Below, in pieces: positions 4,398-60,896 of a stretch of DNA of 64,000 bases; the first letter of the stretch is position 1; each line of letters opens with the position of its first letter. Source of the DNA: Candidatus Omnitrophota bacterium. GTDB lineage: Bacteria; Omnitrophota; Gorgyraeia; Gygaellales; Profunditerraquicolaceae. The stretch spans positions 123,723 to 187,722 of the forward strand of contig JAGOOP010000001.1 of the NCBI GenBank assembly GCA_017992455.1, written 5' to 3'. The notes beneath the pieces were generated by a model. That model searched no databases. It was not told the origin of the DNA and saw only the letters and a list, made by a program, of their open reading frames with translations. The translations under genes and the position numbers were made by a program.

Positions 4398-4401
4398 ATC
4401 G

Positions 4402-4731
4402 TCATTCCACGCACACCGCCTCTTTCAGGCGCTCGAATCTGGATCCGTTCAAGCCCTTGACCCTGCGCAGGGCGTCGATATCCGCGAACGGGCCGTTGAC
4501 CGAGCGATAGTCGATAATGCGCCGCGCAAGCGTATTGCCGATACCGGGCAGTTCCTTGAGCAATTCCGTATCGGCGGTATTGATATTGACCTTGCCGTAT
4601 GATCGGTCAAAACAGAAAACAGGCCGCAATACGGCCGACTGTTTTCTCGCGTAACCGATGGCAGCGCCTGAAAGGATGACCAGGGCAAGGAACACGGCAG
4701 CGCGGCTTTCCTGTTTGGTGAACGGGATCAT
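4402..4731 (-). CDS. comEA: ComEA helix-hairpin-helix DNA-binding competence protein
   Basis: It has an N-terminal TM segment followed by VNINTADTELLKELPGIGNTLARRIIDYRSVNGPFADIDALRRVKGLNGSRFERLK. Confidence 0.85.
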   Translation of the reverse strand: MIPFTKQESRAAVFLALVILSGAAIGYARKQSAVLRPVFCFDRSYGKVNINTADTELLKELPGIGNTLARRIIDYRSVNGPFADIDALRRVKGLNGSRFERLKEAVCVE

Positions 4732-4780
4732 GGTGAGCCTCCGTATAAATAGACGCTCACCGGCCCGTTATCTCACCGGA

Positions 4781-4966
4781 TTATTTCAATACGATAAGGC
4801 AGAAAAGAAGAATTGCGGCGAGGTTGACGACAACGATGAACAGGGCAGGAGTCCCGACGGGATCGACCACGGCGCGCAGATGGCTGTTGCAGAACATGCA
4901 GGTATCGAGGATCGTCCGGTATCGCGCGCGGCAGTGCGGACAGAACTTCGTTTCATGATCGCCCAT
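4781..4966 (-). CDS. Small zinc-ribbon membrane protein
   Basis: CPHC...CMFC zinc ribbon followed by one hydrophobic helix. It is a paralog in architecture of the neighbouring 5040..5249 gene. Confidence 0.55.
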   Translation of the reverse strand: MGDHETKFCPHCRARYRTILDTCMFCNSHLRAVVDPVGTPALFIVVVNLAAILLFCLIVLK

Positions 4967-8300: not shown

Positions 8301-11300
8301 ACTCATACGTCCGCTGGACTTCGGCTGGAAAGATATCCGTGCTGTTGGAGTCGGGCGCCGAATCCTCACGCGCCTCGTTGATCTTCTCAATCAGATATTT
8401 ATGCTCATCCGGGTCAAGCCGGTCAATGCGGTCTGAAAAATACGGGTCGATCACCTTGCCGCTGATGTTCCCTACCTTTTGCTCCCTCATCCTCACGCGT
8501 TTCTCTTCATCGCCCGGATTGAGCATATACCACAAAGCCCAGCGGAGCACCCCGAACGGCCCTGCGTCATTATACGCGTGGATCTCATTGACCGCATGGC
8601 TGCTTTCATGCGCCACAATACGGACCCTCAGATCGGTCGAGTAAGAATCGAATGAATCTTTTAATATGTAAATATCGGCGCCTTTGACCAGCACGTGCGG
8701 AAATCCGATGCGCGGAAGCGCCATGCCTTCTGCCCAGGGATTCGGCAGGGGAAGTTCGTCGACGAGCGTGATCGAGACATTGCCTGACATGGCGGTCCGG
8801 GCCAGATCAGGCTCGATCAGATACAACCAGATGACCGCATGCGCCACATCGGGTTCTTTCTCCCACCGCTCCAGGGCGTGTTCTCTGAAAAGCACGTAAT
8901 CCTCATACGCGCGGAACGCCTCTTCGCTCTCATAGATCCTGCCGTCTGCGGCCTGATAAACCGAGTCATATCCGGCCTGCCCAAGAAAACTCTGCAGATC
9001 AAGGATCTGGTACATATCCGTTCTCTTCTCTTTGGTCCACTGCTCGTTCGGCTCATTGTGCAGCAGATCCATGGACACGATGGTATGCGCATCGGGAATC
9101 TGGGCCTCGAACGCTTCGTAATCCTGCTGGAACGCAACGCCGTACTTTTCTTTGTAAGCGCCCAGCTCTTTTTCAAGCACGGTCCTGAGCGCCCGCGTTT
9201 TCTGGATATCTTTGATCGCGCCGCTGTCCTGAGGCGCATGCATTGCGCCGGCAGTTTTGTAAACTTTGATCGAATTGAACGCACCCTGGGCCAGATAACT
9301 GCTCCAGTGGAATGCCTCCCTTTCAGTATAGGTATCAGGGAACAGGGCCTGCGGATCATTGCCGGCCTGAATATAACGGTCTATCGCGCCCGCCTCCTCT
9401 TTCTCAAATAAAAACTCTTTGAAGCGAGACGCGGCAGGAATTATCGGCCCGAGTTCTTCCTCGGCCTGCCGCAGATCAGCCTGCAGCCGCGCATGCCGCT
9501 CGCGCAGTTCATTCCACTCCTCGGGACGAGTTTCTTTTTCTCCCCGCTGGATCATGCCAACCATGGAAACCTGCGCGCTGAAGCTTTGATCCGTCAGGTC
9601 GCGGTGTTTCAAGAGTTCCTTGTCAATATCGCGCGTATCTTTATGCGTATTCCTGTATTCCCTGACCAGATCGTTCACTTCGTCTCTCAAAGCTTCCAGG
9701 TCCTGCAGTTCGTCATGATCGGCAGGAACCCCGCTCAAGACATCGACCTGATCGCCCACAAACCCTATCTGATATCCCATTCTGCCTTTATCGTTGAGAT
9801 ATTCCGCAATGGCTTTGGGATCCCTGCCTGTGATATCAAGGATCTCTATGATATGCCCGTCGCGGGCGCCGTAAAGCGTATATTCATTCAAATACCTGCT
9901 CAGATTCTGTACCGCGTTGCCGTTGACGACCAACAGAAGCGGAACATCATGAGTTTTTACATACGAGGCGTTTTGCTGCTCAAGATACAGGTCTGGAAGC
10001 GGATTGACAACGAGCGATATGCTGACCGGATGCGAGGTATTATCGGTTAACCCCTCCGGCTCAGATAAAAAGAACGACGTGTAATCGGTTGAATAGGGGA
10101 TTTTTTCAATATGATTAAAAGTCGTCAGGTGCAGCGGCTGCATATCCGGGCCGAGAGGATCGGATGTGTGATCATCGGCCATGCCGCTTACATACGCGTG
10201 AACGAATCCTCCTATAAAAAACGACGGAACGACAAAGAAAGCAAAAACCGCCAGCGTCTTAAAACGCCGGGAGAGCATGCCCTGCGGCTGCGGCGTGTTA
10301 GCGCTGACCATGCCTTCCTGTATTTTCCAGTTCCGGAGATCATCGCGAAGCAAAAGCAGGTCCCCGTACGTCCACGCGCGCAGATCGCCGGCCATCAGAT
10401 CCTTGAACCGCCTGAGCTTCCTTTGCGACGGGATGCCGTAGTGCGCCAGCATCAGGGGGATGATCTGCTCGATCAGCGCGTGCTTTTTGCCGCGGATATC
10501 GTCTGCCAGAGCCCGAAGGCCGTTGGCAGGGATCTCTTCTGGCAAAGAATCGATGCCCCGCGCGTCAAAATATTCCTGCACGAGCTCCCGCTGCTGCCGG
10601 ACCGCTTCTGCATGGTCGCCCGTGCCGCCGTCCCGCTGCACCGCGTCTTCATGCTGCGGGCTGAGCAAGTCGGCTTTTGTTTCTTCGAGGTCTGTCAGTA
10701 AACGGCCGCGGGGATTTCGCAAATCCTGATGCTTCATATAATCACGATTATAGAAACCTCCGGCTCTGCCGGATCCCTGCTCCCGGTTCATAATTAATTG
10801 CAGTCGATCATATGTCGCTTCCTGTATCGGCGCGGTCAATATGGTGCCATCTGCCTGCATGATAACCAGCCGACGGCCAACAATCAGATAATGCTTGGAC
10901 AAGAGCTGTTCCAGGCTATCCTGAACTGACATTCCCAGCCGGATCTTGATTTCCTTATTTGCCTGTGCCAGGCTTTCAGCTATCGCATTGCTCTGTAAAG
11001 CAGAGAATTCCTTGGCCTCCGCTGGCCTGAACCATACTATCCTTGTCTCCGGATCATTTTTGTCGCGAAATCCCGTTGCATATACGGTGGCCAGTATCTT
11101 GGACCGGATGTTCTTTTCCGGCGGGGCGCTGAAAAGGCGCACGCTCTTGCTGCCCGGAGGCAGTATCAGTTCACCGATGATATCCTCTTCGCCGCCGTCG
11201 CGCCGAGATTGACTGCCGTCTGCCTGAGAGAACTGAAATCCTGCCTCTTCCGCTATCTCGAGTAATTTAGCCCTGCCGCGCGCCAGCCAGCCGGCAATCT

Positions 11301-12522
11301 GAATTTCAGAATATCCCTGAGCCGCCAGGAAATCTTTGGCCTGTCTGACCTCATCATCATAAGGAATTCGCGTGTCATTCTCATCTTCCCCGCGTGACTG
11401 ATTTCCGCCGTCTCGCGGCACGGATCCCTTTTTATCGCCGATAGATAAATTCTGTATAATAAAATCACTCACGTATTCACGATTGTCTAACGAGGACGAT
11501 GGGATCGCGGTCAAGCTGCCGCCTGCGACCTGTATGCCGCCGGAGAAATACTGCCTTATGGTTACGCCGTATGGGCTGTTTATGGTTTCTTCTTTTCTGT
11601 ATTCGCCTTCGGAAAAGGACCGTTTGTAGGCATTAAAGCAGGAGGCTTTCGACCATGCCTCTTTTGATGCGAGTCCGTTCAGATCTTTTCCGTCGATGAC
11701 AGGGTTATCCTCATTTTTCGACTTGAACCATTGTGCCAGGATTAACGAATAATACACCTGTCGAAGCTCAGCGTATCTCTTGGAGGAATTCACCTCCCTG
11801 GTCAGCTTCGGAATGATCAGCTGGCGCACAAGGTCTGAGGAATATTCATTCAGCTTTTTAACATTCGGGTCGTCGAAATTGTAGAACGGCGAGTCCTTTA
11901 TGTAATCCTGCTCGAGCATAACTTGCAGGGTCGCCTTGTAGATGAATACACCCTGGGGGGTTTCCCTGATGATGATCTCGCCAGGCACGATCCACGGACG
12001 GGTGAATGTCGGTATCTCTATATCCTGCCCGCTGTAAGTCTGTTCTGCTTTCTCATACAGCTTGTTCCAGTATTGCCTGCCTTCGGGTGTATCGGGATTG
12101 GTAAAACGCGCGAGGTCTTTCTTCAACTGCAGGTCAGCCTCAAGCAGAACTTTTCCAAGGTCCGTCTTTTCCAGATACGGATCGATGACATTATCAGGAG
12201 AATCAGGTCGTAGATTTACCCAAAACATGCTATTGGGTAATGCCAGGCCTATTTTGAAATATTCAAAGAGTTTTCGGGAGGATTCTTCTGCCTGGCCGGG
12301 CGTGAGACTTTTAAGGTCCCCTTGATCAAGAAGAAGCTGGAAGTTGTTTGTGCTCGGATCGAATTCAATTGAACGCAGCTGAACAGGCCTGAACCTGTCT
12401 GCAACAGGCGCGAGATTGCTTAAATACGCGGGCACGGCAAACTGGCCAGCGACCTGTGCATAGCCGGTTTGCTCGGAAATAAAACAAAAACAAATTAGTA
12501 AGGCAATGATCCGCTTGAACAT
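5359..12522 (-). CDS. Giant (2,387 aa) secreted/membrane multidomain protein of unknown function
   Basis: Uninterrupted ORF with a signal peptide (MFKRIIALLICFCFISEQTGYAQ) and internal hydrophobic helices (TLAVFAFFVVPSFFIGGFVHAYV; GALFGLFLGPAALL). It has two HExxH motifs (VAHESSHAV at 8591-8620; LLLHEGLHHN at 6173-6202), two GHKL-like modules and six (R/L)DGG junction motifs. Confidence 0.9.
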   Translation of the reverse strand: MFKRIIALLICFCFISEQTGYAQVAGQFAVPAYLSNLAPVADRFRPVQLRSIEFDPSTNNFQLLLDQGDLKSLTPGQAEESSRKLFEYFKIGLALPNSMFWVNLRPDSPDNVIDPYLEKTDLGKVLLEADLQLKKDLARFTNPDTPEGRQYWNKLYEKAEQTYSGQDIEIPTFTRPWIVPGEIIIRETPQGVFIYKATLQVMLEQDYIKDSPFYNFDDPNVKKLNEYSSDLVRQLIIPKLTREVNSSKRYAELRQVYYSLILAQWFKSKNEDNPVIDGKDLNGLASKEAWSKASCFNAYKRSFSEGEYRKEETINSPYGVTIRQYFSGGIQVAGGSLTAIPSSSLDNREYVSDFIIQNLSIGDKKGSVPRDGGNQSRGEDENDTRIPYDDEVRQAKDFLAAQGYSEIQIAGWLARGRAKLLEIAEEAGFQFSQADGSQSRRDGGEEDIIGELILPPGSKSVRLFSAPPEKNIRSKILATVYATGFRDKNDPETRIVWFRPAEAKEFSALQSNAIAESLAQANKEIKIRLGMSVQDSLEQLLSKHYLIVGRRLVIMQADGTILTAPIQEATYDRLQLIMNREQGSGRAGGFYNRDYMKHQDLRNPRGRLLTDLEETKADLLSPQHEDAVQRDGGTGDHAEAVRQQRELVQEYFDARGIDSLPEEIPANGLRALADDIRGKKHALIEQIIPLMLAHYGIPSQRKLRRFKDLMAGDLRAWTYGDLLLLRDDLRNWKIQEGMVSANTPQPQGMLSRRFKTLAVFAFFVVPSFFIGGFVHAYVSGMADDHTSDPLGPDMQPLHLTTFNHIEKIPYSTDYTSFFLSEPEGLTDNTSHPVSISLVVNPLPDLYLEQQNASYVKTHDVPLLLVVNGNAVQNLSRYLNEYTLYGARDGHIIEILDITGRDPKAIAEYLNDKGRMGYQIGFVGDQVDVLSGVPADHDELQDLEALRDEVNDLVREYRNTHKDTRDIDKELLKHRDLTDQSFSAQVSMVGMIQRGEKETRPEEWNELRERHARLQADLRQAEEELGPIIPAASRFKEFLFEKEEAGAIDRYIQAGNDPQALFPDTYTEREAFHWSSYLAQGAFNSIKVYKTAGAMHAPQDSGAIKDIQKTRALRTVLEKELGAYKEKYGVAFQQDYEAFEAQIPDAHTIVSMDLLHNEPNEQWTKEKRTDMYQILDLQSFLGQAGYDSVYQAADGRIYESEEAFRAYEDYVLFREHALERWEKEPDVAHAVIWLYLIEPDLARTAMSGNVSITLVDELPLPNPWAEGMALPRIGFPHVLVKGADIYILKDSFDSYSTDLRVRIVAHESSHAVNEIHAYNDAGPFGVLRWALWYMLNPGDEEKRVRMREQKVGNISGKVIDPYFSDRIDRLDPDEHKYLIEKINEAREDSAPDSNSTDIFPAEVQRTYELTTRGALFGLFLGPAALLTRMRAVKSRLVWFARRAFGQEDIADRMRILSREAKIVEKTIEFAVPPVEARMNGQRAIEENNKFLALVDSVMEDTILFGLKYKEPFTIRFREFFGNGNGFEGNMATITETTLKTLIRKLAVNGYDAVATFHDREYMGKIGCADRPIPEKVRLTFAAHWATHPQTGKESLRITIADNGAGLFAADTRHKSFVEGSNLYFGGAGLDTRMISKGDSATGAQGLLAYLWGLAGVTIPKNQDNEDATEQFYSLTYGDDGWGATVTVWLPRECLVQRDGGTGSEHTPLADRGAEEQIVKIVDRTIGFLSHSEPMDKDSMIKQKSEFVTWRFDSLVKNTILADLEFKKPFIGDFLDVNGKEMTIFERSLQNLILRLVRNSYDAVATFHDREYMEEIGHAAQQPPVTGILKLSAGWVMHNEKESLQIRIKDNGAGTYAADTRRKELMRERGFDLYFGGSGIDVNIICRGDSQTGSPGLLASLWREAGVPDAEFSSVEHEDAGGTTVTIWLPRECLVQRDGGTERPAAQRDDDKSNETARFDQQADDIREKIRKIFDASKETWKDPKLQLTEEVLERYFRQVLRKFNIGTTEEVIWRMVQKHMNKSIKKEIILIRHSVESSVSQQRRMEENDVLLTDFLNAIHVNPPVPYDVKFVPGHIVEKYVGVYSAGYFPFHQTYVIPSELDGPLLTMLLLHEGLHHNSRGLRSIGKILDEGVTEYAAWKIATSSLKDFLIDAADTNYPLDLQAQELERKVLGVKNSYAPALFLACRVIEAVGEDVVFEAYFKGNIKVLIAALGKDAIRQLKGLDKLKPYDEKIMPQVPKIIDAIEKNQASHNDTQRPKVQLDGGEVRDIDAQQQDLAGIDFRALHGGGQPQQAPVMMPQAMLEMQQLARNSKIQDLDAEWKAIEAQMRAKEMPYARMKEYVAVCVCRPDAGEHLEKTARCILNILRLEEEQGLATRTELTDILVCIG
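6730..7180 (-). other. GHKL (Bergerat-fold) ATPase-like module 2 within the giant protein
   Basis: Motif I is LVRNSYDAV (7114-7143), motif II is IKDNGAGT (6964-6987) and the G2-like motif is YFGGSGID (6886-6909). The module ends in GGTTVTIWLPRECLVQRDGGT. Confidence 0.6.
7446..7930 (-). other. GHKL (Bergerat-fold) ATPase-like module 1 within the giant protein
   Basis: Motif I is LAVNGYDAVAT (7862-7897), motif II is IADNGAGLF (7705-7731) and the G2-like motif is YFGGAGLD (7635-7658). The module ends in GATVTVWLPRECLVQRDGGT. Confidence 0.6.
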
Positions 12523-16043: not shown

Positions 16044-16900
16044 CCTTTGCGCGCGGCCCGCTGCATCAGCCGCCGCACAATGAGCAGGTTTCGCTCATCT
16101 GCGGTCGCGCTATCCTTTGGCGTTTCCAATACACATGCGGTATGCCCCAGGCGCTTGTCGCTGACAATCCGCCTGAAACCCGCTCTTCCGATATTTCCTT
16201 TACCGATATGCTCATGCCGGTCGCGATGGCTGCCCAGTGTATCGCGCGTATCATTCAGATGAATAAGCGCAAGATTCCTGATGCCGACCGTGCGCTCTAT
16301 TTCATCCATGAGCCGGCTGTATCCTGCTTCCGTTGCCAGGTCGTAACCGGCAGCATACGCATGGCATGTATCAAGGCAGGCGCCGATACGGCCCTTCTGT
16401 TCGATGCGGCTGATGATAGCCGCATGATGTTCAAACGTATAGCCGAGCCAGGAACCGCTGCCGGCCGTGTTTTCCAAAAGGATCTTTACGGGCGAACCCT
16501 CAGTCAGTTCCAGGACCCTGTTCAGCGCGATCGAGATCTTTTTCAGACCCCGCTTCTCGCCGGACAATTTATGGCTGCCCATATGGGTGACCATATATTC
16601 CGCGCCCAGGGCCTTGGCCTCGCGCATATCCTGCACATACGCGGTGATCGAACCGCGGAACAGGCCGTGCTCCGGGGACGCAAGATTGATCAAATACGGG
16701 ATATGGATAAAGACTTTTTCTATATTGCTCGCGGCCCGGCGCCGTTTGAATTCATCGATATCGGCTTTTTTCAGCCTGCTTCTGCGCCACTGCCGGGGGT
16801 CGCGGCTGAATATCTGCATTGCGGTGCAGCCGAGTTTTTCCGCGCGCGTTATCGATTCATAGATCCCGCCGGCTGTTGACACCTGTATCCCGAGCAGCAT
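16040..16900 (-). CDS. nfo: Deoxyribonuclease (endonuclease) IV
   Basis: Motifs across a TIM-barrel AP endonuclease 2 pattern: IHIPYLINLASP, MVTHMGSH, CLDTCHAYAAGYD and HLND. Confidence 0.9.
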   Translation of the reverse strand: MLLGIQVSTAGGIYESITRAEKLGCTAMQIFSRDPRQWRRSRLKKADIDEFKRRRAASNIEKVFIHIPYLINLASPEHGLFRGSITAYVQDMREAKALGAEYMVTHMGSHKLSGEKRGLKKISIALNRVLELTEGSPVKILLENTAGSGSWLGYTFEHHAAIISRIEQKGRIGACLDTCHAYAAGYDLATEAGYSRLMDEIERTVGIRNLALIHLNDTRDTLGSHRDRHEHIGKGNIGRAGFRRIVSDKRLGHTACVLETPKDSATADERNLLIVRRLMQRAARKG

Positions 16901-16918
16901 AGAACCTCATTTTAGCAT

Positions 16919-16974
16919 AAAAAAAAGGCAGGTCCACCAAAAACCTCTCGTCGAGAAATGTGGCGGCCCTGCCT
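16919..16974 (-). terminator. Candidate terminator downstream of tRNA-Ala
   Basis: On the minus strand, the stem AGGCAGG/CCUGCCU (plus an inner CCAC/GUGG pairing) is followed by an 8-U tract. The large loop lowers confidence. Confidence 0.45.
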
Positions 16975-16979
16975 GTATA

Positions 16980-17055
16980 TGGTGGAGCTGAGGAGGATTG
17001 AACTCCTGACCCCTTGCATGCCATGCAAGTGCTCTCCCAGCTGAGCTACAGCCCC
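16980..17055 (-). tRNA. tRNA-Ala (anticodon GGC), CCA encoded
   Basis: The reverse complement GGGGCTGTAGCTCAGCTGGGAGAGCACTTGCATGGCATGCAAGGGGTCAGGAGTTCAATCCTCCTCAGCTCCACCA folds as a cloverleaf. It has the G3:U70 alanine identity pair and the anticodon loop AT-GGC-AT. Confidence 0.9.
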
Positions 17056-17071
17056 GGAATCTATCGATATT

Positions 17072-17479
17072 TCAACCGCTGATATATTTCGACAGCAGCG
17101 ACCACGTCTTGCTGCCCACAACGCCGTCGGGGGTTATGCCGTTGGCCCGCTGGAATTTCATGATGGCCTCTTTTGTCTCAGGCCCGATCTTGCCGTCGAT
17201 CATACCCTTGAACATACCGGCTTTTTTAAGCGCGGTCTGGATCTCGGTGGCATTGGGCATGCGGACTTCCTGCCTGCTCGCTGCCTCAAGCTGTTTGCGC
17301 AGGATGTAATTCTCATCCTTGAGCCGGTTACGCTCTATCTCAAGTGAATTGATCTTGGCCTGGTATTCCTGAACGACCGAAACCGATACGGTCTGCGATG
17401 CCCTGGGCGACTGGGTCGTCGCGCACCCCGATAACGCAAAAATCCCTGCCAATAACGCTCCCAAACATATCCGTCCCAT
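17072..17479 (-). CDS. Lipoprotein with coiled coil and peptidoglycan-binding (PG_binding_1) domain
   Basis: Start MGRICLGALLAGIFALSGC at 17479 behind an AGGAGG Shine-Dalgarno, with lipobox LSGC. The C-terminus is IQTALKKAGMFKGMIDGKIGPETKEAIMKFQRANGITPDGVVGSKTW. Confidence 0.7.
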   Translation of the reverse strand: MGRICLGALLAGIFALSGCATTQSPRASQTVSVSVVQEYQAKINSLEIERNRLKDENYILRKQLEAASRQEVRMPNATEIQTALKKAGMFKGMIDGKIGPETKEAIMKFQRANGITPDGVVGSKTWSLLSKYISG

Positions 17480-17503
17480 ACGAACCTCCTTGAAATTCAT
17501 GGT

Positions 17504-17532
17504 ATTATACCCCAGATTTATAGAATTGACAA
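17504..17532 (-). promoter_or_regulatory. Sigma70-like promoter for the PG-binding lipoprotein gene
   Basis: The minus strand reads TTGTCA-N17-TATAAT (-35 at 17532-17527, -10 at 17509-17504). Confidence 0.5.
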
Positions 17533-17554
17533 ACAAGATTTTAGACTGTATCAT
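17526..17554 (+). promoter_or_regulatory. Sigma70-like promoter for tRNA-Leu
   Basis: TTGACA (17526-17531)-N17-TATCAT (17549-17554), about 18 nt upstream of the mature tRNA 5' end. Its -35 overlaps the divergent promoter's -35. Confidence 0.5.
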
Positions 17555-17571
17555 TTATATACATTCGGAAT

Positions 17572-17657
17572 CGCCGAGGTGGCGAAATGGCAGACGCGTC
17601 GGTCTCAAAAACCGATAGGGTTACACCTATGAGGGTTCAACTCCCTCCCTCGGCACC
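17572..17657 (+). tRNA. tRNA-Leu (anticodon CAA), long variable arm, CCA encoded
   Basis: The acceptor GCCGAGG pairs with CCTCGGC, the anticodon loop is CT-CAA-AA, the variable arm is TAGGGTTACACCTAT and the T arm is GAGGG-TTCAACT-CCCTC. The last 7 nt, GGCACCA, are the att core of the adjacent element. Confidence 0.9.
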
Positions 17658-17763
17658 AAATTGAACGGTTGACCCCAAAGGCTCTGTCCCTCGGGACAGA
17701 GCGCCAAAATTCGCGTTTTCGGCGAAAATTCGGCGGGGCAAATTCAAGTATAGGTGAACTTCG
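17651..17763. repeat. Inverted repeat A, left copy (113 bp)
   Basis: It is the reverse complement of 19275-19387, with one mismatch (17748 against 19290). It starts with the tRNA 3' end GGCACCA and contains the internal palindrome CTCTGTCCCTCGGGACAGAG. Confidence 0.95.
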
Positions 17764-17869
17764 TAAGGAGTTCACCTATTTCTTTTTCGGCGTCCTCAGT
17801 CAAAATTCTTTTTTTCTCCCTCATGAGGAATCCGCTGGAAACCCGAAAGGCGCAAACCTGGAGGTCGCC

Positions 17870-19477
17870 ATGAAATGCGCCGTGTACGTGCGGGTTTCCA
17901 CCGAAGAACAAGCCAAAGCGGGTTACTCTCTCGCCGCCCAGACAGATAAGATAATTGAGTTTATACGCAACAAAGGCTGGACGCACACCGAAATTTATTG
18001 CGATGACGGCTACTCTGCCGCGACGCGGCGGCGGCCAGCACTTGAGCGTTTGCTGGCCGATTCAACGGCGCGGCAGTTTGACGCCGTCCTGGTGTATAAG
18101 ATCGACCGCTTCTCGCGCAACCTCAAAGACCTGCTCGATATTGTCGAACAATTGAGCAAGAACGCCGTCGGCTTCAAGTCGATAACCGAATTGATCGATA
18201 CCACCACCCCTGAAGGCCGCCTCATGTTCCACCAGTTCGGCTCATTCGCGCAATATGAGCGCGAACTGATCGCCCAACGCGTAATGCTTGGACTGCGTAA
18301 AAGATTCCAGTCCGGCATGTGGGTAAGCGGCGTAGCTCCCTTCGGCTACAAGCAAAAGAACGGAAAACTTGAACTTGTTGATAAAGAGGCGGCCGTCGTC
18401 AAGACCATGTTCGACCTCTACACCCAAAAGAACCTCGGCGTGATAAATATCGCCCGTTACTTAAATAACGCGGGACTACGGACACGGGCCGGAAATATGT
18501 GGAAGCCGACGGTCATTCACCACATTATCACAAATCCGACTTACACAGGTTGCATAATACGCGGCGGCGAGAGAGTAACCGGGGCTCACAAACCCATTGT
18601 TAAAGAGGAAACATTTAACCGTATAAAAGAGCTCCTTCCTACTCGCAAAGCGAAAACCCGCGTGTTTGTGAGCCCCAACCTCTTCACCGGGTTCATATTC
18701 TGCGGCTGCGGCGCTCCCATGCACATGATTTATCCAGGACTGCCAAATAAGATTCGTTATAAATACTATGCCTGCTCCCGGCGCATAGCCTATAAAGACT
18801 GCAAAACCGAATATCTACGCCAGGACATCTTAGAAACCAGTGTTTTAGATCAGCTAAACAAGCTTGCCACTGATAAACCAAGACTGACCGCGATAATAAC
18901 CCTTCTTAAAAACCAGAACAACAAGCTTTTACCTGGCTTGCGCCGCAGCCGCCTGGAGCTGTCGCAAAATATCAGCGGTCTGACACAGCAAAAAAACGGG
19001 TTATTAAAATGGATGAGCGCAAAAGAAGCAAAACCTTATACGCTGAACGTACTCAATGAGAAATTCGAGAAGATCGAGCTTGAACTAAACGAATTAACGC
19101 ACAAGTTGTGGCAGACCGACGAGGAATTGAGTAAGAGGTCGCGCTTTGGCTTGTCTTCGGAGAAAGTCGCCTTGTGGCTTAAGCAAGTGATCAAGACTTA
19201 CGCGGATTCCGACCGGCAGGAGAAAAAAAGAATTTTGTCTGAGGTTTTGGAAAAGATCACAGTAAAATCAAAAGACGAAGTTCACCTATTCTTGAATTTG
19301 CCCCGCCGAATTTTCGCCGAAAACGCGAATTTTGGCGCTCTGTCCCGAGGGACAGAGCCTTTGGGGTCAACCGTTCAATTTGGTGCCCTTCGTCTGAAGA
19401 ATACCCAAAAGGCTGTTTGTCAATTAACCTACTCGATTCAATCCTACTACCAAAAGAAAGATCAGTCAAGAGAATAG
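17870..19477 (+). CDS. Large serine recombinase (resolvase domain, recombinase domain, zinc ribbon, coiled coil)
   Basis: The ATG at 17870 follows a GGAGG Shine-Dalgarno. The protein reads MKCAVYVRVSTEEQAKAGYSL...VLVYKIDRFSRN..., then CGCGAPMH...YYACSRRIAYKDCK as the zinc ribbon, then a long coiled coil. The last 68 codons lie inside the inverted repeats. The TTG-started N-terminal extension in the ORF track (17669) is repeat DNA. Confidence 0.9.
   Translation: MKCAVYVRVSTEEQAKAGYSLAAQTDKIIEFIRNKGWTHTEIYCDDGYSAATRRRPALERLLADSTARQFDAVLVYKIDRFSRNLKDLLDIVEQLSKNAVGFKSITELIDTTTPEGRLMFHQFGSFAQYERELIAQRVMLGLRKRFQSGMWVSGVAPFGYKQKNGKLELVDKEAAVVKTMFDLYTQKNLGVINIARYLNNAGLRTRAGNMWKPTVIHHIITNPTYTGCIIRGGERVTGAHKPIVKEETFNRIKELLPTRKAKTRVFVSPNLFTGFIFCGCGAPMHMIYPGLPNKIRYKYYACSRRIAYKDCKTEYLRQDILETSVLDQLNKLATDKPRLTAIITLLKNQNNKLLPGLRRSRLELSQNISGLTQQKNGLLKWMSAKEAKPYTLNVLNEKFEKIELELNELTHKLWQTDEELSKRSRFGLSSEKVALWLKQVIKTYADSDRQEKKRILSEVLEKITVKSKDEVHLFLNLPRRIFAENANFGALSRGTEPLGSTVQFGALRLKNTQKAVCQLTYSIQSYYQKKDQSRE
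19275..19387. repeat. Inverted repeat A, right copy (113 bp)
   Basis: It is the reverse complement of 17651-17763 (112/113) and lies inside the 3' end of the recombinase gene. Confidence 0.95.
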
Positions 19478-19779
19478 GCCCCGCCCGCTTGGCCGCGGGC
19501 TTCGTTGTGCCGGTGGCGTCGCTTCGCCCCGCGTGACGCGGGGCTGCGCTGGACGGCCGCTTAGGTCAGCGGCCTGGAGCTAATGCAGTCCGGGCTCGGC
19601 TCGGCTGCGGCTGGGGCTGGGTGGGGGCAGCCCCAGCCGCGCGTCCTCTCGCACCGCTGTTAAATCCCCCAGGTCGTACGCTGTGCCGCAATTAACAAAT
19701 AGAAAAACTCGGCGGTGCGGCACGCCGAGCCTCTTGGTGGATAGGTTTGAAAAGTCGCTAAGTAAACCTACACCCCGAT
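19381..19779. repeat. Inverted repeat B, left copy (399 bp)
   Basis: It is the exact reverse complement of 22528-22926, checked block by block by eye. It begins with TGGTGCC, which is shared with repeat A. Confidence 0.95.
19702..19729 (-). terminator. Rho-independent terminator inside repeat B, facing out of the cargo segment (mirror copy on the + strand at 22578-22605)
   Basis: The minus strand reads CUCGGCG-UGCCGCAC-CGCCGAG followed by UUUUUC, about 100 nt downstream of the last cargo gene. Confidence 0.6.
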
Positions 19780-19830
19780 AACACTGTTATTTTTTTAAGG
19801 GGGCACCTTTTAAGGATGCCCCCTTTCGAA

Positions 19831-20262
19831 CTATCTGTATTTTACGAATTTGGTATTCCCAAGCTCGTAATAATAGTACCAAACTTCCGAAACATTAACG
19901 TTATGTTTTGATATGAGACGCAATGCTTCGTCACAATACTTGCTTGGTACAATCAACAGAAACTTGATACCTAGGCTTCCATAATCTTTCCATTGTTCCG
20001 CTTCTGAATCAGAAACAGACTCAGCGGTTTCAATTTCTTCAATTATGACAGCCGTACCTCTAGCCGAACCTAATGAATCAGGCAGCCATACTACAACATC
20101 AGGATAACGCGGATTAGACGCAGGTCCTACAAATTGATTCTTCTCCCCACCAGGATTAGTGCTCACTTTGTAACCCTTGCGTTGCATTTCTCCATAAGTC
20201 GCAGCTGACGCACTGACTATTCTATCATGCTCGGATTCTTCCAGGGTTGTACGAATAGCCAT
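19831..20262 (-). CDS. Hypothetical 143-aa alpha/beta protein; possible PD-(D/E)xK-like fold (weak)
   Basis: Start MAIRTTLEE at 20262, after a strong AGGAGGT Shine-Dalgarno. YPDVVVW...AVIIEEIET resembles a nuclease core without the canonical Lys. An RLISKH (Rx4H) string lies near the C-terminus. I recognise no family for it. Confidence 0.5.
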   Translation of the reverse strand: MAIRTTLEESEHDRIVSASAATYGEMQRKGYKVSTNPGGEKNQFVGPASNPRYPDVVVWLPDSLGSARGTAVIIEEIETAESVSDSEAEQWKDYGSLGIKFLLIVPSKYCDEALRLISKHNVNVSEVWYYYYELGNTKFVKYR

Positions 20263-20457
20263 TATTTTTTGGTATACCTCCTTCCTAAAATTTCTGTGGG
20301 GAAGTTGCCAAAAGTATTGACTTTTCACCTCCTTAGGATATACTAATGACAACGGCACTAACACAGATATTTAGTGTCCCAAGGGTGGATAAAAGGCCCC
20401 CAAGCCAAACTTTATCCGCCCTTTTTCTTTTATTCAAAGACCATCAGTAGTTAGTTA

Positions 20458-21096
20458 TCAAACCAAGAATTTATTTAGCTCATTTACTAATATATGTACG
20501 GTCGTAGAAGGTCTTCTGACGCTAGCGGGATGAGTAGCTATGTAACCAGATAGAAGTCGCGAGGCATTTCTTATTCCATCCCCCTGTTTGTTTAGAATAA
20601 GCTGGTAGATTTCAGTACTGTTTTTCTCGTAAGGCTTACCTAAAAGTGCGCTTAACCTGGTAATATATTCCGATCGTTTTGAGGCAGTTTGATGATATTG
20701 GAAGTGTAACAAGTACCATAACTCAAAACACTCATTAGAATAAGCCACTTTGATATCATGTTTTTTTGCCAACGCAATAGCCTTTTCAAAGTTATCATCA
20801 GGATTATCATCTTTATCAAATACACACCAAATTTGATCAAACTTTATACCGTATGTTGCAGCATCTTTCTTGTACTTTATAGTCTTTTCTACAAGAGACA
20901 CTGTATTATCTCCCGGCCCAAAGATTTCGTCTTTTACTTGAGAGGAAGTTAACCGAAAACTGTTAAAATAATTAGGCTCAGTTTTCTCCCCTTCACAGAC
21001 AATTAAGAAAGTTTCTCTAACTGTCCTGACGGCAACTTGCCTTTTAGCGATTCTTGACTGTTTTCTTTTCCAAAACGCGGCGTCCGGTTCTTTCAT
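20458..21096 (-). CDS. RloB-like (Toprim-related) protein, AbiLii-type
   Basis: The N-terminal FLIVCEGEKTEPNYF motif is characteristic of RloB-like proteins, followed by WCVFDKDD. Its start is in an ATGA overlap with the upstream ATPase stop. Confidence 0.75.
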   Translation of the reverse strand: MKEPDAAFWKRKQSRIAKRQVAVRTVRETFLIVCEGEKTEPNYFNSFRLTSSQVKDEIFGPGDNTVSLVEKTIKYKKDAATYGIKFDQIWCVFDKDDNPDDNFEKAIALAKKHDIKVAYSNECFELWYLLHFQYHQTASKRSEYITRLSALLGKPYEKNSTEIYQLILNKQGDGIRNASRLLSGYIATHPASVRRPSTTVHILVNELNKFLV

Positions 21097-22346
21097 TTTC
21101 TAAAAAGCGAGTTGTCTCCTCTAATAAAAGGAATAGCTCCATATTTGCCTGCAATGTAGTCTTTCTCAAAAGAAGCATCATTTCTAACTTTATATTCTGC
21201 CAAAGAATATAAATCAGTCGCCCCATATTTATTTTTTTCTGTTAGCCATATTTGATCTCTGCGGAAAATGCTTCTATTAAAAAGATTGGTATTGTGAGAA
21301 GCAAAAACTAATTGAGCATTCTTGGGGTTATTCTCAAGAGAATTAAATAATGTTATAAGAAATTTTATTAAAATAGGGTGGAGTTTCGCGTCAAGCTCAT
21401 CAACTACTATTATGCTCCCATTCTTAAGAGTGTCTAGAAAAGGCCCGGAAAGAGCAAAGAATTTCTTAGTGCCTTCGGATTCCTCTATCCCCAAATCAAA
21501 TTTAACCGAGGATATTGGCTTGTTTTCGTTATCAAATTTTGAGTGCAAAGTTTGGATGCTAACATTGAAAACTTGTCCCTCTGGGCCAAATTTTGCTTTT
21601 TCCTTTTCAGACATATCCTCATACTTTAACTGCGTTTCCTCTAAATTAATATCCTCGATTCCTAAATCGGCTTCTTTGAGAAATCTGAGAACATTTTTCC
21701 TGAATTCCTCATCCTTGATTCTTTCAAGAGTGAACGGAACAAGCCTTACGTCTATCAGCGTAGATATAATATGGAGGTTTTTCCCAAACCAATTTAAGAT
21801 CTCTTTTGAAATCTCGCCATTCCATTGAGCAACAACCGATAAGAAGAGCGCATTAGGTCTAGTTATTTTCTCCTTTCCTTTGCCTTCTTTAAAATGCGTT
21901 CCGATTTGAAAGTTGTCCCCTTCTCTTACGAAAAGTTGAGTTTCTTTTCTAATCGGAACGCTAAAAAGCCATTCTCGTACTACCTTTTCTCTATCAACCT
22001 GAAAACCATATCTATACCTTGTTTCTTTATGAATAAAAACTACTTCGAAAAGAGATGGTTTATCATCTGTTTCAGCACTCAATTTAAAGTTTGTGACATT
22101 AATTCTTCCCTTATCTTGGGTAGAAGTTAAAACAAATTTTTTCATAAACCTCATTGCTCTAATCAAATTACTTTTCCCACTTGCGTTGGCTCCATAAATA
22201 ACTGCACTCTTCAATAACCTTAATTTATTGTTAGCTATAAATAGATTTGTATCCGCATGTTCTTTCTTAGCGGAAGCAACCATGCTGAAAGTTACAATAT
22301 CTTTAAAAGATAAGAAATTCCCTACACTAAATTCAATTATCATCAT
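21093..22346 (-). CDS. AAA15/AAA21-type ABC ATPase (AbiLi / AriA / OLD-ATPase class)
   Basis: Walker A is GANASGKSN, the signature-like motif is ESEGTKKF, Walker B is IIVVDELDAKLHP and the H-loop is FASHN. The N-terminus MIIEFSVGNFLSFKD is typical of the family. Confidence 0.85.
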   Translation of the reverse strand: MMIIEFSVGNFLSFKDIVTFSMVASAKKEHADTNLFIANNKLRLLKSAVIYGANASGKSNLIRAMRFMKKFVLTSTQDKGRINVTNFKLSAETDDKPSLFEVVFIHKETRYRYGFQVDREKVVREWLFSVPIRKETQLFVREGDNFQIGTHFKEGKGKEKITRPNALFLSVVAQWNGEISKEILNWFGKNLHIISTLIDVRLVPFTLERIKDEEFRKNVLRFLKEADLGIEDINLEETQLKYEDMSEKEKAKFGPEGQVFNVSIQTLHSKFDNENKPISSVKFDLGIEESEGTKKFFALSGPFLDTLKNGSIIVVDELDAKLHPILIKFLITLFNSLENNPKNAQLVFASHNTNLFNRSIFRRDQIWLTEKNKYGATDLYSLAEYKVRNDASFEKDYIAGKYGAIPFIRGDNSLFRK

Positions 22347-22426
22347 TATCTCCTGGGTTACAGTATCTATTAGGCATATTTTTGGACAAAGTCCACAAAT
22401 TACAATCCTATTTTATCCACAAAAGA

Positions 22427-22454
22427 AGTATAACTCAAAAATATAAAATGTCAA
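22427..22454 (-). promoter_or_regulatory. Sigma70-like promoter of the cargo operon
   Basis: The minus strand reads TTGACA (22454-22449)-N16-TATACT (22432-22427). Downstream lies a TGGAC-TTT-GTCCA palindrome (22383-22395) that could be an operator. Confidence 0.55.
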
Positions 22455-22527
22455 GCTTTTTTGTGATATTTACTCAAAAACTAGTTTTATTATTGTAGCA
22501 GCGCCATAATCGAAGTGGTTTCTAGGA

Positions 22528-22926
22528 ATCGGGGTGTAGGTTTACTTAGCGACTTTTCAAACCTATCCACCAAGAGGCTCGGCGTGCCGCACCGCCGAGT
22601 TTTTCTATTTGTTAATTGCGGCACAGCGTACGACCTGGGGGATTTAACAGCGGTGCGAGAGGACGCGCGGCTGGGGCTGCCCCCACCCAGCCCCAGCCGC
22701 AGCCGAGCCGAGCCCGGACTGCATTAGCTCCAGGCCGCTGACCTAAGCGGCCGTCCAGCGCAGCCCCGCGTCACGCGGGGCGAAGCGACGCCACCGGCAC
22801 AACGAAGCCCGCGGCCAAGCGGGCGGGGCCTATTCTCTTGACTGATCTTTCTTTTGGTAGTAGGATTGAATCGAGTAGGTTAATTGACAAACAGCCTTTT
22901 GGGTATTCTTCAGACGAAGGGCACCA
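22528..22926. repeat. Inverted repeat B, right copy (399 bp)
   Basis: It is the exact reverse complement of 19381-19779 and ends in GGGCACCA at the right boundary of the element. Confidence 0.95.
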
Positions 22927-22950
22927 GACTGATAGCCAAAAACATAGAAA

Positions 22951-22987
22951 ACATAGGGACGGTTCTCTTCGAGAACCGTCCCTATGT
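22951..22987. terminator. Bidirectional terminator in the chromosomal flank right of the element
   Basis: A perfect 17-bp stem ACATAGGGACGGTTCTC / GAGAACCGTCCCTATGT with a 3-nt loop and T-rich tracts on both sides. It lies downstream of the minus-strand gene 23023..24072. Confidence 0.7.
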
Positions 22988-22990
22988 TTT

Positions 22991-23016
22991 AAATAATTCT
23001 GACCCCGTTTTTAGCC
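22991..23016. repeat. REP-like element, single copy (AAATAATTCTGACCCCGTTTTTAGCC)
   Basis: The same 26-mer recurs at 24296-24321 and 60846-60871. Its reverse complement recurs at 24265-24290 and 60792-60817, and a partial copy lies at 27990-28011. Confidence 0.85.
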
Positions 23017-23022
23017 TTTTTA

Positions 23023-24072
23023 TCAGTCGTTGATGACGATTGTGCCGTTCTCGCACGAAATACTGTTGATCCGCATGAGATTGAGGCCGTTGGCGGAATT
23101 GGGCACCAGTTCATAAACCACGCCGTCAAGGCTCAGGACAAGCTCGCTCAACTGCTGCGCACTGGGTTCAGAAACCAGGGGCTTTCCGGTCACGATGTCG
23201 AATTCCACGGTCCCGTATTCTCCGTCATAATCGGTGCCTCCCATGCGCAGGGCAGTCCCTCCCTCAAGGACCTCGACGCTCGACAGGTCTCCGGTCCCCT
23301 CATCAAAAAGGGTCAGCGGGAAAATAGTCAATGCATCGGAGGAGGTCGTCACGAGCCCGAACCAGGCTGAATTGTCTGCCCTGACCGCCATCGCATTGGG
23401 CTCAGCCGCCATCACAACGCCTGAAAACTCGCGGTCTCCTGCGGTGAAAGATATTTCCTGGCCCACATACTGCTGGCTGCCGGACCTGACCATGGCGAGG
23501 ACTGCCGGATCAACCCCGCTATAGGTCCATTCCCCCGCGTTATTCGTGTTGATCTGAGGCGCTGTTGCCGGCACGTATCCTGTTGCTGGAATGACCGGCG
23601 AGACTGCCGGGCCCGGAGCAGGAGAAACAGGCGCTGCGGGAGCCGGAGAAACAGGCTGGGCCGATGTTGCAGGAGCTGTTTGCCCCGGCATCTGAAATAC
23701 CTGCGTCTGAACGTGCGCGGTCAGGACCGGCGTTACCATCGCCGCCTGGCGAATGGATATCGCGGGCGCGACTGCGGTCGTGTCCACTGCGTGGAACGTC
23801 TGGATCGCGGGCCTGAACGTATAGGTGTCCGCGAGGGCCGCCATGCGGTCCTGCAGGAAAGTTTCAGAGGTCTGGAACGAAAACTGCGAGAGATCCGGCT
23901 TCTGCCACTGCCCCGCCGTTTCCGAAGACGCATTCATCGTGTGTGACGGAGATTCATACACATAAGAACTGAAATCATAGGCATAGGCTGATGCTGCAAA
24001 AAAAATGCCTGCTGCGCACGCGGCAAAGAACAAAACCGCTGCTGCAGAAGAGGATTTCATCTGACTGCACAT
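23023..24072 (-). CDS. Secreted protein of unknown function with Pro/Ala-rich linker
   Basis: It has a signal peptide (AAVLFFAACAAGIFFAASAYA), a PVSPAPAAPVSPAPGPAVSPVIP linker and a C-terminal region that looks beta-rich. I recognise no family. Confidence 0.6.
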   Translation of the reverse strand: MCSQMKSSSAAAVLFFAACAAGIFFAASAYAYDFSSYVYESPSHTMNASSETAGQWQKPDLSQFSFQTSETFLQDRMAALADTYTFRPAIQTFHAVDTTAVAPAISIRQAAMVTPVLTAHVQTQVFQMPGQTAPATSAQPVSPAPAAPVSPAPGPAVSPVIPATGYVPATAPQINTNNAGEWTYSGVDPAVLAMVRSGSQQYVGQEISFTAGDREFSGVVMAAEPNAMAVRADNSAWFGLVTTSSDALTIFPLTLFDEGTGDLSSVEVLEGGTALRMGGTDYDGEYGTVEFDIVTGKPLVSEPSAQQLSELVLSLDGVVYELVPNSANGLNLMRINSISCENGTIVIND

Positions 24073-24162: not shown

Positions 24163-24264
24163 CTGATTCATGTCTGCGCTGAATGTGCGATATACTTTAT
24201 AAAGATAGCACATGCCAGACGTTTTTTCAAGGTCGGGAATAAAAATATTTTTGAATTACACCAA

Positions 24265-24321
24265 GGGCTAAAAACGGGGTCAGAATTATTTATTAAATAA
24301 TTCTGACCCCGTTTTTAGCCC
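24265..24321. repeat. REP-like element, head-to-head pair forming a 57-bp palindrome
   Basis: GGGCTAAAAACGGGGTCAGAATTATTTATTAAATAATTCTGACCCCGTTTTTAGCCC, immediately after the stop codon of the SGNH gene. Confidence 0.9.
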
Positions 24322-24990
24322 TTATTCTTTTTTGAATTTGGTCAGCAGGGCGTTCTGGTTCAAATATGGCAGGATGGCGCGATAGACCCGCTGCGCGATA
24401 AGCCGGTAGCCGTGCTCATTGGGATGAAAATAATCGCTTTTCATGCTGGCTTTGTCGAAAATGCCGTTGAGCAGGTTCGGAATATAGATCGTCCCGTATT
24501 GCCGGCTGAGCGACTGGAAAATCGGGCCGTAGTCAGACATGAGATGCATATTGCTGACATCGACCAACGCCACGATCGCTCCCTGCTTCTGGCATTGCTG
24601 TATGATCGATTCGATATTGCGCCGCGTATCTTCGAGGGCTATTTTGGTAAGGAAATCGTTTGCTCCGAACTCGACAACTACCAGAAGCGGTTCCCGGTCA
24701 AGGACGTCGGGCCTGATCCGCTTCAAAGCTCCTTCGGAGGTATCTCCTTCAATGCCGGCATTCACGACCGGGATGGACGTCAGTTTGGAAAGATACGCCG
24801 GATAGGAAGATTTCGGGCCTGCGCCGAACCCCTGGGTCAGGGAATCGCCGAAACATACGATATATTTACCCGAAGAATCTATGTTCACGATATCGCTGCG
24901 CATGCACCCTGATATGCACAGGATACCGGCGATGCCCGGGACGATCAAACTCCTGGATAAGATACGGCCGTAATGAATAACCATTTCCAT
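24322..24990 (-). CDS. SGNH/GDSL hydrolase lipoprotein (TesA/arylesterase-like)
   Basis: Lipobox CISGC. The SGNH blocks are FGDSLTQG, VEFGANDF and DYFHPNEHGY. The start is uncertain (24990 or 25020). Confidence 0.8.
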   Translation of the reverse strand: MEMVIHYGRILSRSLIVPGIAGILCISGCMRSDIVNIDSSGKYIVCFGDSLTQGFGAGPKSSYPAYLSKLTSIPVVNAGIEGDTSEGALKRIRPDVLDREPLLVVVEFGANDFLTKIALEDTRRNIESIIQQCQKQGAIVALVDVSNMHLMSDYGPIFQSLSRQYGTIYIPNLLNGIFDKASMKSDYFHPNEHGYRLIAQRVYRAILPYLNQNALLTKFKKE

Positions 24991-27921: not shown

Positions 27922-27989
27922 TGACGATTATTATACTACGGGTACATGCCCGGGAGCACATATATTGAACCGCAGGGCCGCGCAAAAAT

Positions 27990-28011
27990 AAATAATTCTG
28001 ACCCCGTTTTT
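27990..28011. repeat. REP-like element, partial single copy
   Basis: AAATAATTCTGACCCCGTTTTT overlaps the stop codon of gene 28011..28316. The terminal TAGCC is replaced. Confidence 0.7.
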
Positions 28012-28316
28012 TATTCGGTGACCGCATCGACGGCAAGGACGAATGCCTTGACGCCTTCTTTGCCGAGAGTCTGGCGCAGTTTCTGCGCTGCGGCAAGCAG
28101 CTGCAGGGCCTCGCTGTCAGTACAGCCGGCCAGGAGAAGGTTATTGCGGCCGGGCCAGATATCATTGCCCATGTGCGTGCCCGATGATTTTCCCTTGCCG
28201 AACACGCCGGGGATCTTGGTATAATTGTTCAACACGCAGGATTGCTCGAGGATATCCATAACCTCAGCGTCAACGGCCTCGTTGTACGATATCATGACCA
28301 TCTTGGTTATCTTCAT
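28011..28316 (-). CDS. Small PII-like (ferredoxin-fold) protein, last gene of the efflux operon
   Basis: 101 aa with a beta-alpha-beta-beta-alpha-beta pattern and a Gly-rich loop (GVFGKGKSSGTHMG). The fold is assigned by eye only. Confidence 0.4.
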   Translation of the reverse strand: MKITKMVMISYNEAVDAEVMDILEQSCVLNNYTKIPGVFGKGKSSGTHMGNDIWPGRNNLLLAGCTDSEALQLLAAAQKLRQTLGKEGVKAFVLAVDAVTE

Positions 28317-44367: not shown

Positions 44368-44404
44368 TGTCGGTTTTTTCTTTCTGCGTGCATTGTTGAG
44401 CGTA

Positions 44405-47282: not shown

Positions 47283-47291
47283 GGTCCCGTG

Positions 47292-49115: not shown

Positions 49116-49223
49116 GACGCTCCTATACATTCACGATCATCGTAATATTGTATTATACCATCGCCCCTTTGGAATAAAAATAATTTTGTGCCGCGCATTG
49201 CACGATCGGCTCTTGCCGGACCG

Positions 49224-60671: not shown

Positions 60672-60791
60672 GATAATGCTCCTTTTTTGGGGAAAGACGG
60701 GAATTTTATCAGGGCTCAATCATGAAGATCGAGAGCCGGTTAGGCGTATATTCATTATAGAAGACAAGCAGACCGCGGTCAAGCATAAAAA

Positions 60792-60871
60792 GGCTAAAAA
60801 CGGGGTCAGAATTATTTATTTGCGATATGTCAGTAGCCGGCAAATAAATAATTCTGACCCCGTTTTTAGCC
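60792..60871. repeat. REP-like element, inverted pair with 18-nt loop (31-bp arms)
   Basis: GGCTAAAAACGGGGTCAGAATTATTTATTTG ... CAAATAAATAATTCTGACCCCGTTTTTAGCC, between the kamA stop and the EF-G-like gene start. Confidence 0.9.
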
Positions 60872-60896
60872 CCTCGTTCGAGTCTTTTTCAGAGGG

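Follow-up and report, generated by a model that had tools for sequence, protein, structure and literature searches.

We examined a 64,000-nt window (the whole stretch of DNA analysed, to which coordinates refer unless a related locus is named) of contig JAGOOP010000001.1 from a Candidatus Omnitrophota bacterium, in which a small island is inserted at a tRNA-Leu gene. The island encodes a large serine recombinase (LSR; 17870-19477, + strand), and an imperfect dyad at 19356-19414 lies within the recombinase gene. As judged from sequence comparison, this dyad is probably an intact attP-type site of the LSR, kept in the integrated island as a spare, inverted copy. The composition of the site, its conservation, the architecture around it and the occurrence of both orientations among relatives are directly supported. 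Taken alone, the site is of an ordinary kind, while the layout in which it stands appears to be undescribed: our literature search found no account of an intact inverted attP within a recombinase open reading frame (ORF) bracketed by inverted repeats.

Composition of the site and limits of the island

The arms of the dyad are AGCCTTTGGGGT (19356-19367) and ACCCAAAAGGCT (19403-19414); AGCCTTTTGGGT, the reverse complement of the right arm, matches the left arm at 11 of 12 positions. Re-reading the sequence confirmed these coordinates and the 35-nt spacer as given in an earlier sequence-only reading, and likewise its symmetry centre at 19385, within TGGTGCC (19381-19387). That reading also had this heptamer shared with both ends of the island, and the complementary form GGCACCA does end the tRNA gene at 17652-17658 and recur at 22920-22926. 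Its description of the site as attP-like stands; the dyad, at ~59 bp, is larger than the 40-50 bp quoted there for LSR att sites and lies at the upper end of the 40-60 bp range for an imperfect dyad centred on a crossover. Dyads with 12-nt arms, at most one mismatch and a 20-50 nt spacer number 46 in the whole 64-kb window; one was observed in the local 2 kb against 0.21 in shuffles, and the chance expectation for one in any given 7-nt stretch is about 0.005.

The tRNA junction, the reverse complement of 19356-19414 and the right junction were aligned three ways on the core. Site 1 (17623-17683, +) reads B + core + P', i.e. the tRNA arm, GGCACCA at 17652-17658 and AATTGAACGGTTGACCCCAAAGGCT; its B arm is the body of tRNA-Leu(CAA) (17573-17658, +; found by ARAGORN and by the Rfam tRNA profile at 60.1 bits), whose last 7 nt are the core. 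Site 3 (22893-22943, +; alignment and motif scan) reads P + core + B', i.e. AGCCTTTTGGGTATTCTTCAGACGAAG, GGCACCA at 22920-22926 and the host flank GACTGATAGCC, with B' containing GACTGATAGCCAAAAAC. The reverse complement of site 2, the dyad, reads P + core + P': its left part is that of site 3 and its right part that of site 1. Put in terms of the arms, the left arm exactly reverse-complements the sequence 3' of the core at the tRNA-Leu junction, and the right arm the sequence 5' of the core at the right junction. This pattern of switching identifies sites 1 and 3 as the attL and attR of an inserted element, bears out the composition of a complete attP claimed in the earlier reading, and would confine the crossover to the 7-nt block 19381-19387. 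Site 2 is inverted relative to both attL and attR. The inserted element is thus 17659-22926, 5.27 kb at the tRNA-Leu(CAA) gene's 3' end, with an interior of 36-43% GC against 52-58% in the flanks. The reconstructed attB contains CCCTCGGCACCAGACTGATAGCC and consists of the tRNA-Leu 3' end followed by GACTGATAGCC.

Two long inverted-repeat pairs meet at site 2, one bracketing the recombinase gene and the other the AbiL cargo. Repeat A pairs 17652-17764 with 19275-19387 (113 nt, 99%) and continues, beyond a divergent 29-nt patch, at 17794-17819 with 19219-19244. Its left copy a' (17652-17819, +) repeats the recombinase 3' end in reverse complement and forms the leader of the recombinase gene; its right copy a (19219-19387, +) covers the recombinase's coding 3' end as far as the core. 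Since a 1-nt mismatch and the 29-nt patch separate them, a' is a physical copy distinct from a. Repeat B pairs 19381-19779 with 22528-22926 (about 400 nt, about 100%). Copy b (19381-19779, +) holds the P arm, the recombinase tail and stop, conserved GC-rich hairpins (19478-19745) and a terminator (19734-19703, -), and the right copy b' (22528-22926, +) has the core at its end. A and B had been said to meet precisely at this site, and their overlap is indeed the 7-nt core only; an apparent 13-nt overlap in the repeat search comes from extension through two mismatches.

The 535-aa recombinase carries the Pfam domains Resolvase (PF00239, 1.2e-41), Recombinase (PF07508, 9.7e-20) and Zn_ribbon_recom (PF13408, 9.8e-12). 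It has what defines an LSR: a resolvase catalytic domain (residues 4-150) with the nucleophilic serine, S10 of a YVRVSTEEQ motif, invariant in homologues, followed by a Recombinase domain and a zinc-ribbon domain with a coiled-coil insertion; C278, C280, C302 and C311 are likewise invariant. The N-terminal domain of the TP901-1 integrase is matched at 3.5e-27, and the relatives with solved structures are the TP901-1, SPbeta and A118 integrases. An AlphaFold2 model from a 19-sequence alignment was poor (pLDDT 56, about 30 in the tail) and uninformative on the tail; long helices appear at 336-424 in this low-confidence model. Site 2 lies inside the ORF, both of its arms being coding (EPLG and NTQKA), and the stop follows about 30 codons past the core.

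The outer motifs TTTGGGG / CCCAAAA lie about 19-25 bp from the centre in both P arms. By inspection, the host arm B' carries AGCCAAAA at about 13-20, against about 19-26 in P', about 6 bp nearer the centre than the P/P' motif. For comparison, the Listeria integrase has 25-bp attP half-sites with the zinc-ribbon motif at 16-24, and in its attB the motif is 5 bp inward (PMC3783163). The attP sites of LSRs (A118/LI, TP901-1, SPbeta SprA, phiC31, Bxb1) resemble site 2 in being imperfect dyads around a short core shared with attB, in having as arms the joined ends of the integrated element, in the zinc-ribbon-typical distance of the outer motifs, in an inward shift of about 6 bp in one host arm (B', though not in the tRNA arm B), and in being served by enzymes with the same three domains. 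They differ in scale (the LI attP is 50 bp with motifs at 16-24, against ~59 bp with motifs at about 19-30 bp here) and in setting: only the window's site is within the recombinase ORF, persists as an intact inverted copy when the element is integrated, and sits among long inverted repeats whose copies evolve in concert. For LSR integrases a further difference is that no directionality factor was identified for the window element.

Conservation and orientation among related loci

We took 107 loci of recombinase homologues (L-numbers below), not all of them close relatives and some contigs being counted twice; the conservation alignment holds 21 distinct sites, and arm statistics come from the 18 lineages without gaps in the arms. 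The homologues are many, with 50-72% protein identity, mostly in Omnitrophota metagenome-assembled genomes. At the related loci the recombinase adjoins a tRNA 3' end; seven tRNA species are targeted (Leu-CAA, Leu-GAG, Leu-CAG, Phe-GAA, Glu-CTC, Glu-TTC and Met-CAT), and the core sequence varies according to the tRNA. Where both gene ends were assembled, the recombinase typically stands between the copies of a 140-165-nt inverted repeat (90-100% identity), which has the tRNA 3' end as its outer end, and the closest relatives, L001 and L002 (96% identical recombinase), have the 113 + 26 nt arrangement of the window. An intact site 2 is present in each lineage having a tRNA and a repeat-bracketed recombinase. 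IMG/VR has no relative of the recombinase exceeding 32% identity (over a fragment), nor an exact copy of left arm plus core, so a phage origin is not supported.

The arm spacer is 35 nt in all 18 gap-free lineages, among relatives with no more than 50-70% protein identity. At arm positions 6, 7, 9, 10 and 11 the complementary pairs never vary; these make up the TT…GGG / CCC…AA portion of the motif. At position 8 the window clade has G facing A and six lineages have C facing G, a change in both arms. If two subunits of a single protein read the two arms, fixed spacing with paired arms is the pattern to expect. L036, at a tRNA-Glu gene, has all three sites in the same relation with the common core GGCTA; if its register is the same, it would narrow the crossover to 5 nt around the dyad centre.

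The recombinase frame is open through site 2 in 21/21 lineages, the other five frames being stopped in almost every lineage, and a 30-residue tail like that of the window is retained in homologues. In the right arm variation is lowest at third codon positions, a sign that DNA-level constraint dominates there; in the codon-position analysis around the site as a whole, protein and DNA constraint were not separable. Part of the DNA-level constraint is probably accounted for by a promoter-like element, TTGACT-17-TAGGAT, at 19441-19469 (-), which points towards the core antisense to the recombinase tail and has a second copy at 22838-22866 (+). TTGAC(G/T/C)-17-TAATCT or TAGGAT is kept in 18/21 lineages (a TTGATT variant occurs in L031), at a near-constant position about 53-59 nt from the core and with variable spacer sequence. 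Such an element would act on the recombinase only where the gene has an intact attP ahead of it. Behind the tRNA and inside a' lies a terminator-like hairpin (17750-17779, +), a 13-bp stem followed by TTCTTTTT, found also in L020/L088.

The recombinase segment occurs in both orientations among relatives. In one, a tRNA(+) is followed by the recombinase(+) with its full tail; in the other, the recombinase(+) is followed by a tRNA(-) and the ORF ends 4-20 codons past the core. L020 and L088 have in common a flank of 1169 nt and a recombinase segment of 1585 nt, each 100% identical; in the two loci the segment points in opposite directions. L034 is a flipped element spanned completely: cargo, attP, a' (interrupted by an insertion sequence), recombinase, a and tRNA-Glu(-); the interruption, at 3481-4791 of that locus, is a DDE transposase (DDE_Tnp_1_4) within the a' leader. 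Most contigs end about 120 nt beyond the core or within the second repeat copy, which fits either repeats or mixed orientations, so orientation calls from short reads need caution. The contigs of L024, L032 and L052 are compatible with an amphimeric circle and do not prove one. At L089 (9725-11575) a recombinase segment stands between tRNA-Leu(CAA)(+) and tRNA-Leu(CAG)(-); we considered capture of a second tRNA attB by the internal attP, with a resulting chromosomal deletion or inversion, and did not use the locus as evidence, since the contig may equally be chimeric.

Proposed mechanism and alternatives

We infer the protein contacts, the crossover position, a circle with two attPs and any regulatory role as follows. 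According to the LSR paradigm, one subunit would bind each half-site, with TTTGGGG and CCCAAAA the most likely contacts of the zinc-ribbon domain, and the strands would be cut and exchanged with a 2-bp stagger close to G19385, the centre of the dyad, within GGCAC. The element would comprise two inverted copies of a ~580-bp block, each with the recombinase 3' end, attP, and the recombinase tail with its structured trailer. One attP copy would have recombined with the tRNA-Leu attB and is now presumably split between attL (17652) and attR (22920); the recombinase gene is whole because the copy through which it reads stayed uncut. The excised circle would have the two ~580-bp inverted repeats separating recombinase from cargo, and the flipped isomer seen in relatives would arise when the other attP copy is used for integration or when the repeats mediate an inversion. 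There the recombinase would read into the antisense tRNA and lack the 30-residue tail, and would probably be preceded by an intact attP with its promoter-like element; in the window orientation it would stand behind the tRNA and the terminator-like hairpin.

Several points weigh against an attP of this kind. (i) The 35-nt spacer is odd, so the arms are symmetric about a single base and not about a dinucleotide. (ii) Compared with the attP of the Listeria integrase, the motifs are 2-5 bp further from the centre, and by inspection the tRNA arm B has GGGT at the P-arm distance, with no inward shift. (iii) Codon-position variation around the site is not coding-like, and the role of the tail as protein is uncertain. 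(iv) Short-read assembly can get a segment's orientation wrong where it lies between 165-nt perfect repeats. (v) No circular form was found and no empty attB from the same species; exact-protein matching of the neighbouring genes, aimed at such a site or at further isomers within the species, gave nothing useful. (vi) By the known rules for LSRs a chromosomal attP is inert where no attB is free, and mechanism alone does not explain its retention. (vii) The one- and two-step site-specific origins that we tried do not give an inverted normal attP together with single copies of recombinase and cargo. For the inverted duplication we considered tandem dimers, antiparallel attP x attL or attP x attR reactions, and dimer inversion; none fits.

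A pure inversion system or a two-unit composite retains a low to moderate probability. The first would make sites 1-3 inversion sites of a recombinase that is mainly an invertase, flipping its own segment (1 x 2) and the cargo (2 x 3), with the dyad as the middle crossover site common to both reactions. Pairs 1/2 and 2/3 are indeed inverted, with cores at the outer ends of long inverted repeats, and the relatives show both recombinase orientations, one pair of them with identical flanks. The likeness to Hin/Gin/Cin extends to segments between inverted repeats, with crossover sites at the outer ends and both orientations in nature, and to the position of the recombinase within its own invertible segment, as in hin; in P1, the inverted repeats around the C segment are 0.6 kb long and carry cix sites at the outer ends. 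As in Hin and Gin, then, a segment flanked by inverted sites is found both ways round, although the caveat about assembly across 165-nt repeats applies to this. The enzyme, however, is not a small serine recombinase of the Hin type, which has a C-terminal helix-turn-helix (HTH) and works on sites of about 26 bp with a Fis-bound enhancer: it has 535 aa and LSR C-terminal domains. For the Hin/Gin enhancer and Fis none is known here, no enhancer search having been made. Unlike invertase sites, the outer sites are tRNA and host junctions made by insertion, and the switching at both ends together with the low-GC cargo shows insertion into the tRNA gene. The inversions would moreover require attL x attP and attP x attR reactions, pairs left unrecombined by the LSRs studied (PMC3783163), and the flipping can just as well be put down to the repeats recombining homologously or to a re-integration that uses the other attP. 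We consider a mainly inverting enzyme doubtful; inversion is also compatible with, and not exclusive of, the intact-attP explanation.

The second would make the locus a recombinase unit with P'-type ends next to a separately inserted cargo cassette with P-type ends, so that the dyad is a hybrid junction and not a true attP. Each unit does have inverted repeats of its own ending in half-sites, the cargo varies among relatives while the flanking b repeats are conserved, and in L006 the a and a' copies are mismatched and resemble two lineages. Yet the P arm runs on unbroken into the ORF tail of the recombinase and the conserved promoter-like element in every lineage, the P and P' arms share a motif in which one position has changed on both together, no locus has a recombinase unit lacking the P arm apart from the degraded L048, and serial insertion would require reactions of the attP x attR type. 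A composite is on these grounds improbable.

Assembly artefact and chance are effectively excluded. An internal site assembled from mixed reads of integrated and excised circular forms might be suspected from the about 100% identity of repeat B over about 400 nt and from the many related contigs that end in or just beyond repeats; but a mixture of that kind cannot produce an inverted attP, a' and a differ by the mismatch and the 29-nt patch, and the layout recurs in independent assemblies with repeat identities of 90-99.5%, so that this origin is scarcely conceivable. That both arms lie in an ORF lends next to no credence to a chance or coding-driven palindrome without a role in recombination, given the expectation of 0.005, the low third-position variation in the right arm, the fixed spacing and symmetric arms in 18 lineages, and the coincidence of the dyad centre with the attL/attR switch point.

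With the dyad read as an intact attP, two further comparisons bear on the element as a whole. If excised, it would resemble the yeast 2-micron circle (FLP/FRT), with two inverted repeats, a site in each, and two unique segments; FLP, in contrast, is a tyrosine recombinase while the window enzyme is a serine recombinase, and the 2-micron circle replicates autonomously and uses inversion for copy amplification, whereas the window element has no replication genes. In SSV-type archaeal integrases and in the integration-dependent immunity of mycobacteriophages, the attP reportedly lies inside a gene, so that integration alters the product. Here too the attP is in coding sequence, and integration through that copy would give the product another C-terminus. 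The systems compared employ tyrosine recombinases; here only the last 30 residues would be exchanged, and the spare inverted attP lets the gene stay intact.

We tentatively suggest that these Omnitrophota islands represent a distinct design of integrative element, in which the recombinase gene runs across its own attP and the element also carries a spare, inverted duplicate of gene end and attP. Should this be so, the attP copy used for integration or in a later inversion would decide between a full-length recombinase and one without the 30-residue tail, and whether the recombinase is joined to the conserved promoter across attP; this would be a built-in switch of expression and directionality needing no separate directionality factor, and the b repeats would serve also as handles for swapping defence cargo. 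Large serine integrases are leading tools for genome insertion, and control of their direction normally needs a second protein; an intact internal attP, placed within the recombinase gene and toggling orientation and C-terminus, would be a new form of LSR regulation. The family offers related enzymes for seven tRNA species with matched attP cores, usable for engineering specificity, and informs on the movement and cargo swapping of small defence islands in Omnitrophota, a group known almost only from metagenomes.

Cargo, folded elements and other features of the window

The low-GC cargo (19831-22346, -) consists of three ORFs: a 177-aa ORF of unassigned function (19831-20364, -), AbiLii/RloB (20458-21096, -; PADLOC AbiLii 6e-32, Pfam RloB 2e-47) and the AbiLi/AAA_21 ATPase (21093-22346, -; PADLOC AbiLi 3.7e-105, Pfam AAA_21 1.1e-40). 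Cargo-flanking repeats of 320-480 nt and 93-100% identity are present in L006, L008, L010, L017, L024, L032, L033 and L034 (93-99.5% in L006, L010, L024 and L032). The cargo of relatives is unrelated and includes a sigma factor together with a Ser/Thr kinase, a DnaJ-domain protein, LexA accompanied by two methyltransferases, and a DUF4238 protein.

Directly 3' of the recombinase stop is a GC-rich block of about 270 nt (19478-19745, with an inverted copy at 22562-22829) that is conserved between lineages, with counterparts in L006 (7560-7862), L017 (1902-2196), L010 (1759-2015) and L012 (11584-11850). It folds into several hairpins plus a long-range pairing of GGCUCGGC with GCCGAGCC; 17 of 55 predicted pairs stay paired through two-sided changes, and G.U pairs favour the recombinase-sense strand. 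The block has no Rfam match, and over 16800-23200 only two tRNAs were matched in Rfam at E<=0.1. It could be a structured 3' untranslated region, an oriT-like element or a set of homology handles for cargo exchange.

A perfect palindrome with a 9-10-bp stem, CTCTGTCCC-NN-GGGACAGAG, abuts the P' arm (17681-17702 and 19337-19358) and is present in all related loci, its structure being kept while the stem sequences differ between lineages. The loop is inverted between the window and L001, and also between the two copies in L008. Repeat copies evolve in concert: the loop difference between the window and L001 (TC vs GA) is found in both copies. The L006 repeat copies (5775-5938 and 7303-7466) are only 90% identical and bear palindromes typical of two different lineages, which suggests an exchange of modules between elements.

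Elsewhere in the window, a REP-like palindromic unit containing GGCTAAAAACGGGGTCAGAATTATTTA recurs at 22983-23019, 24263-24323, 27982-28018 and 60789-60874; the copies are intergenic, often as hairpin pairs behind genes. A single 2387-aa ORF occupies 5359-12522 (-). Three paralogues (966, 493 and 612 aa) at 41572-49130 (-) contain arrays with a 102-nt period, i.e. 34-residue TPR-like repeats, and have conserved 3' ends in common.

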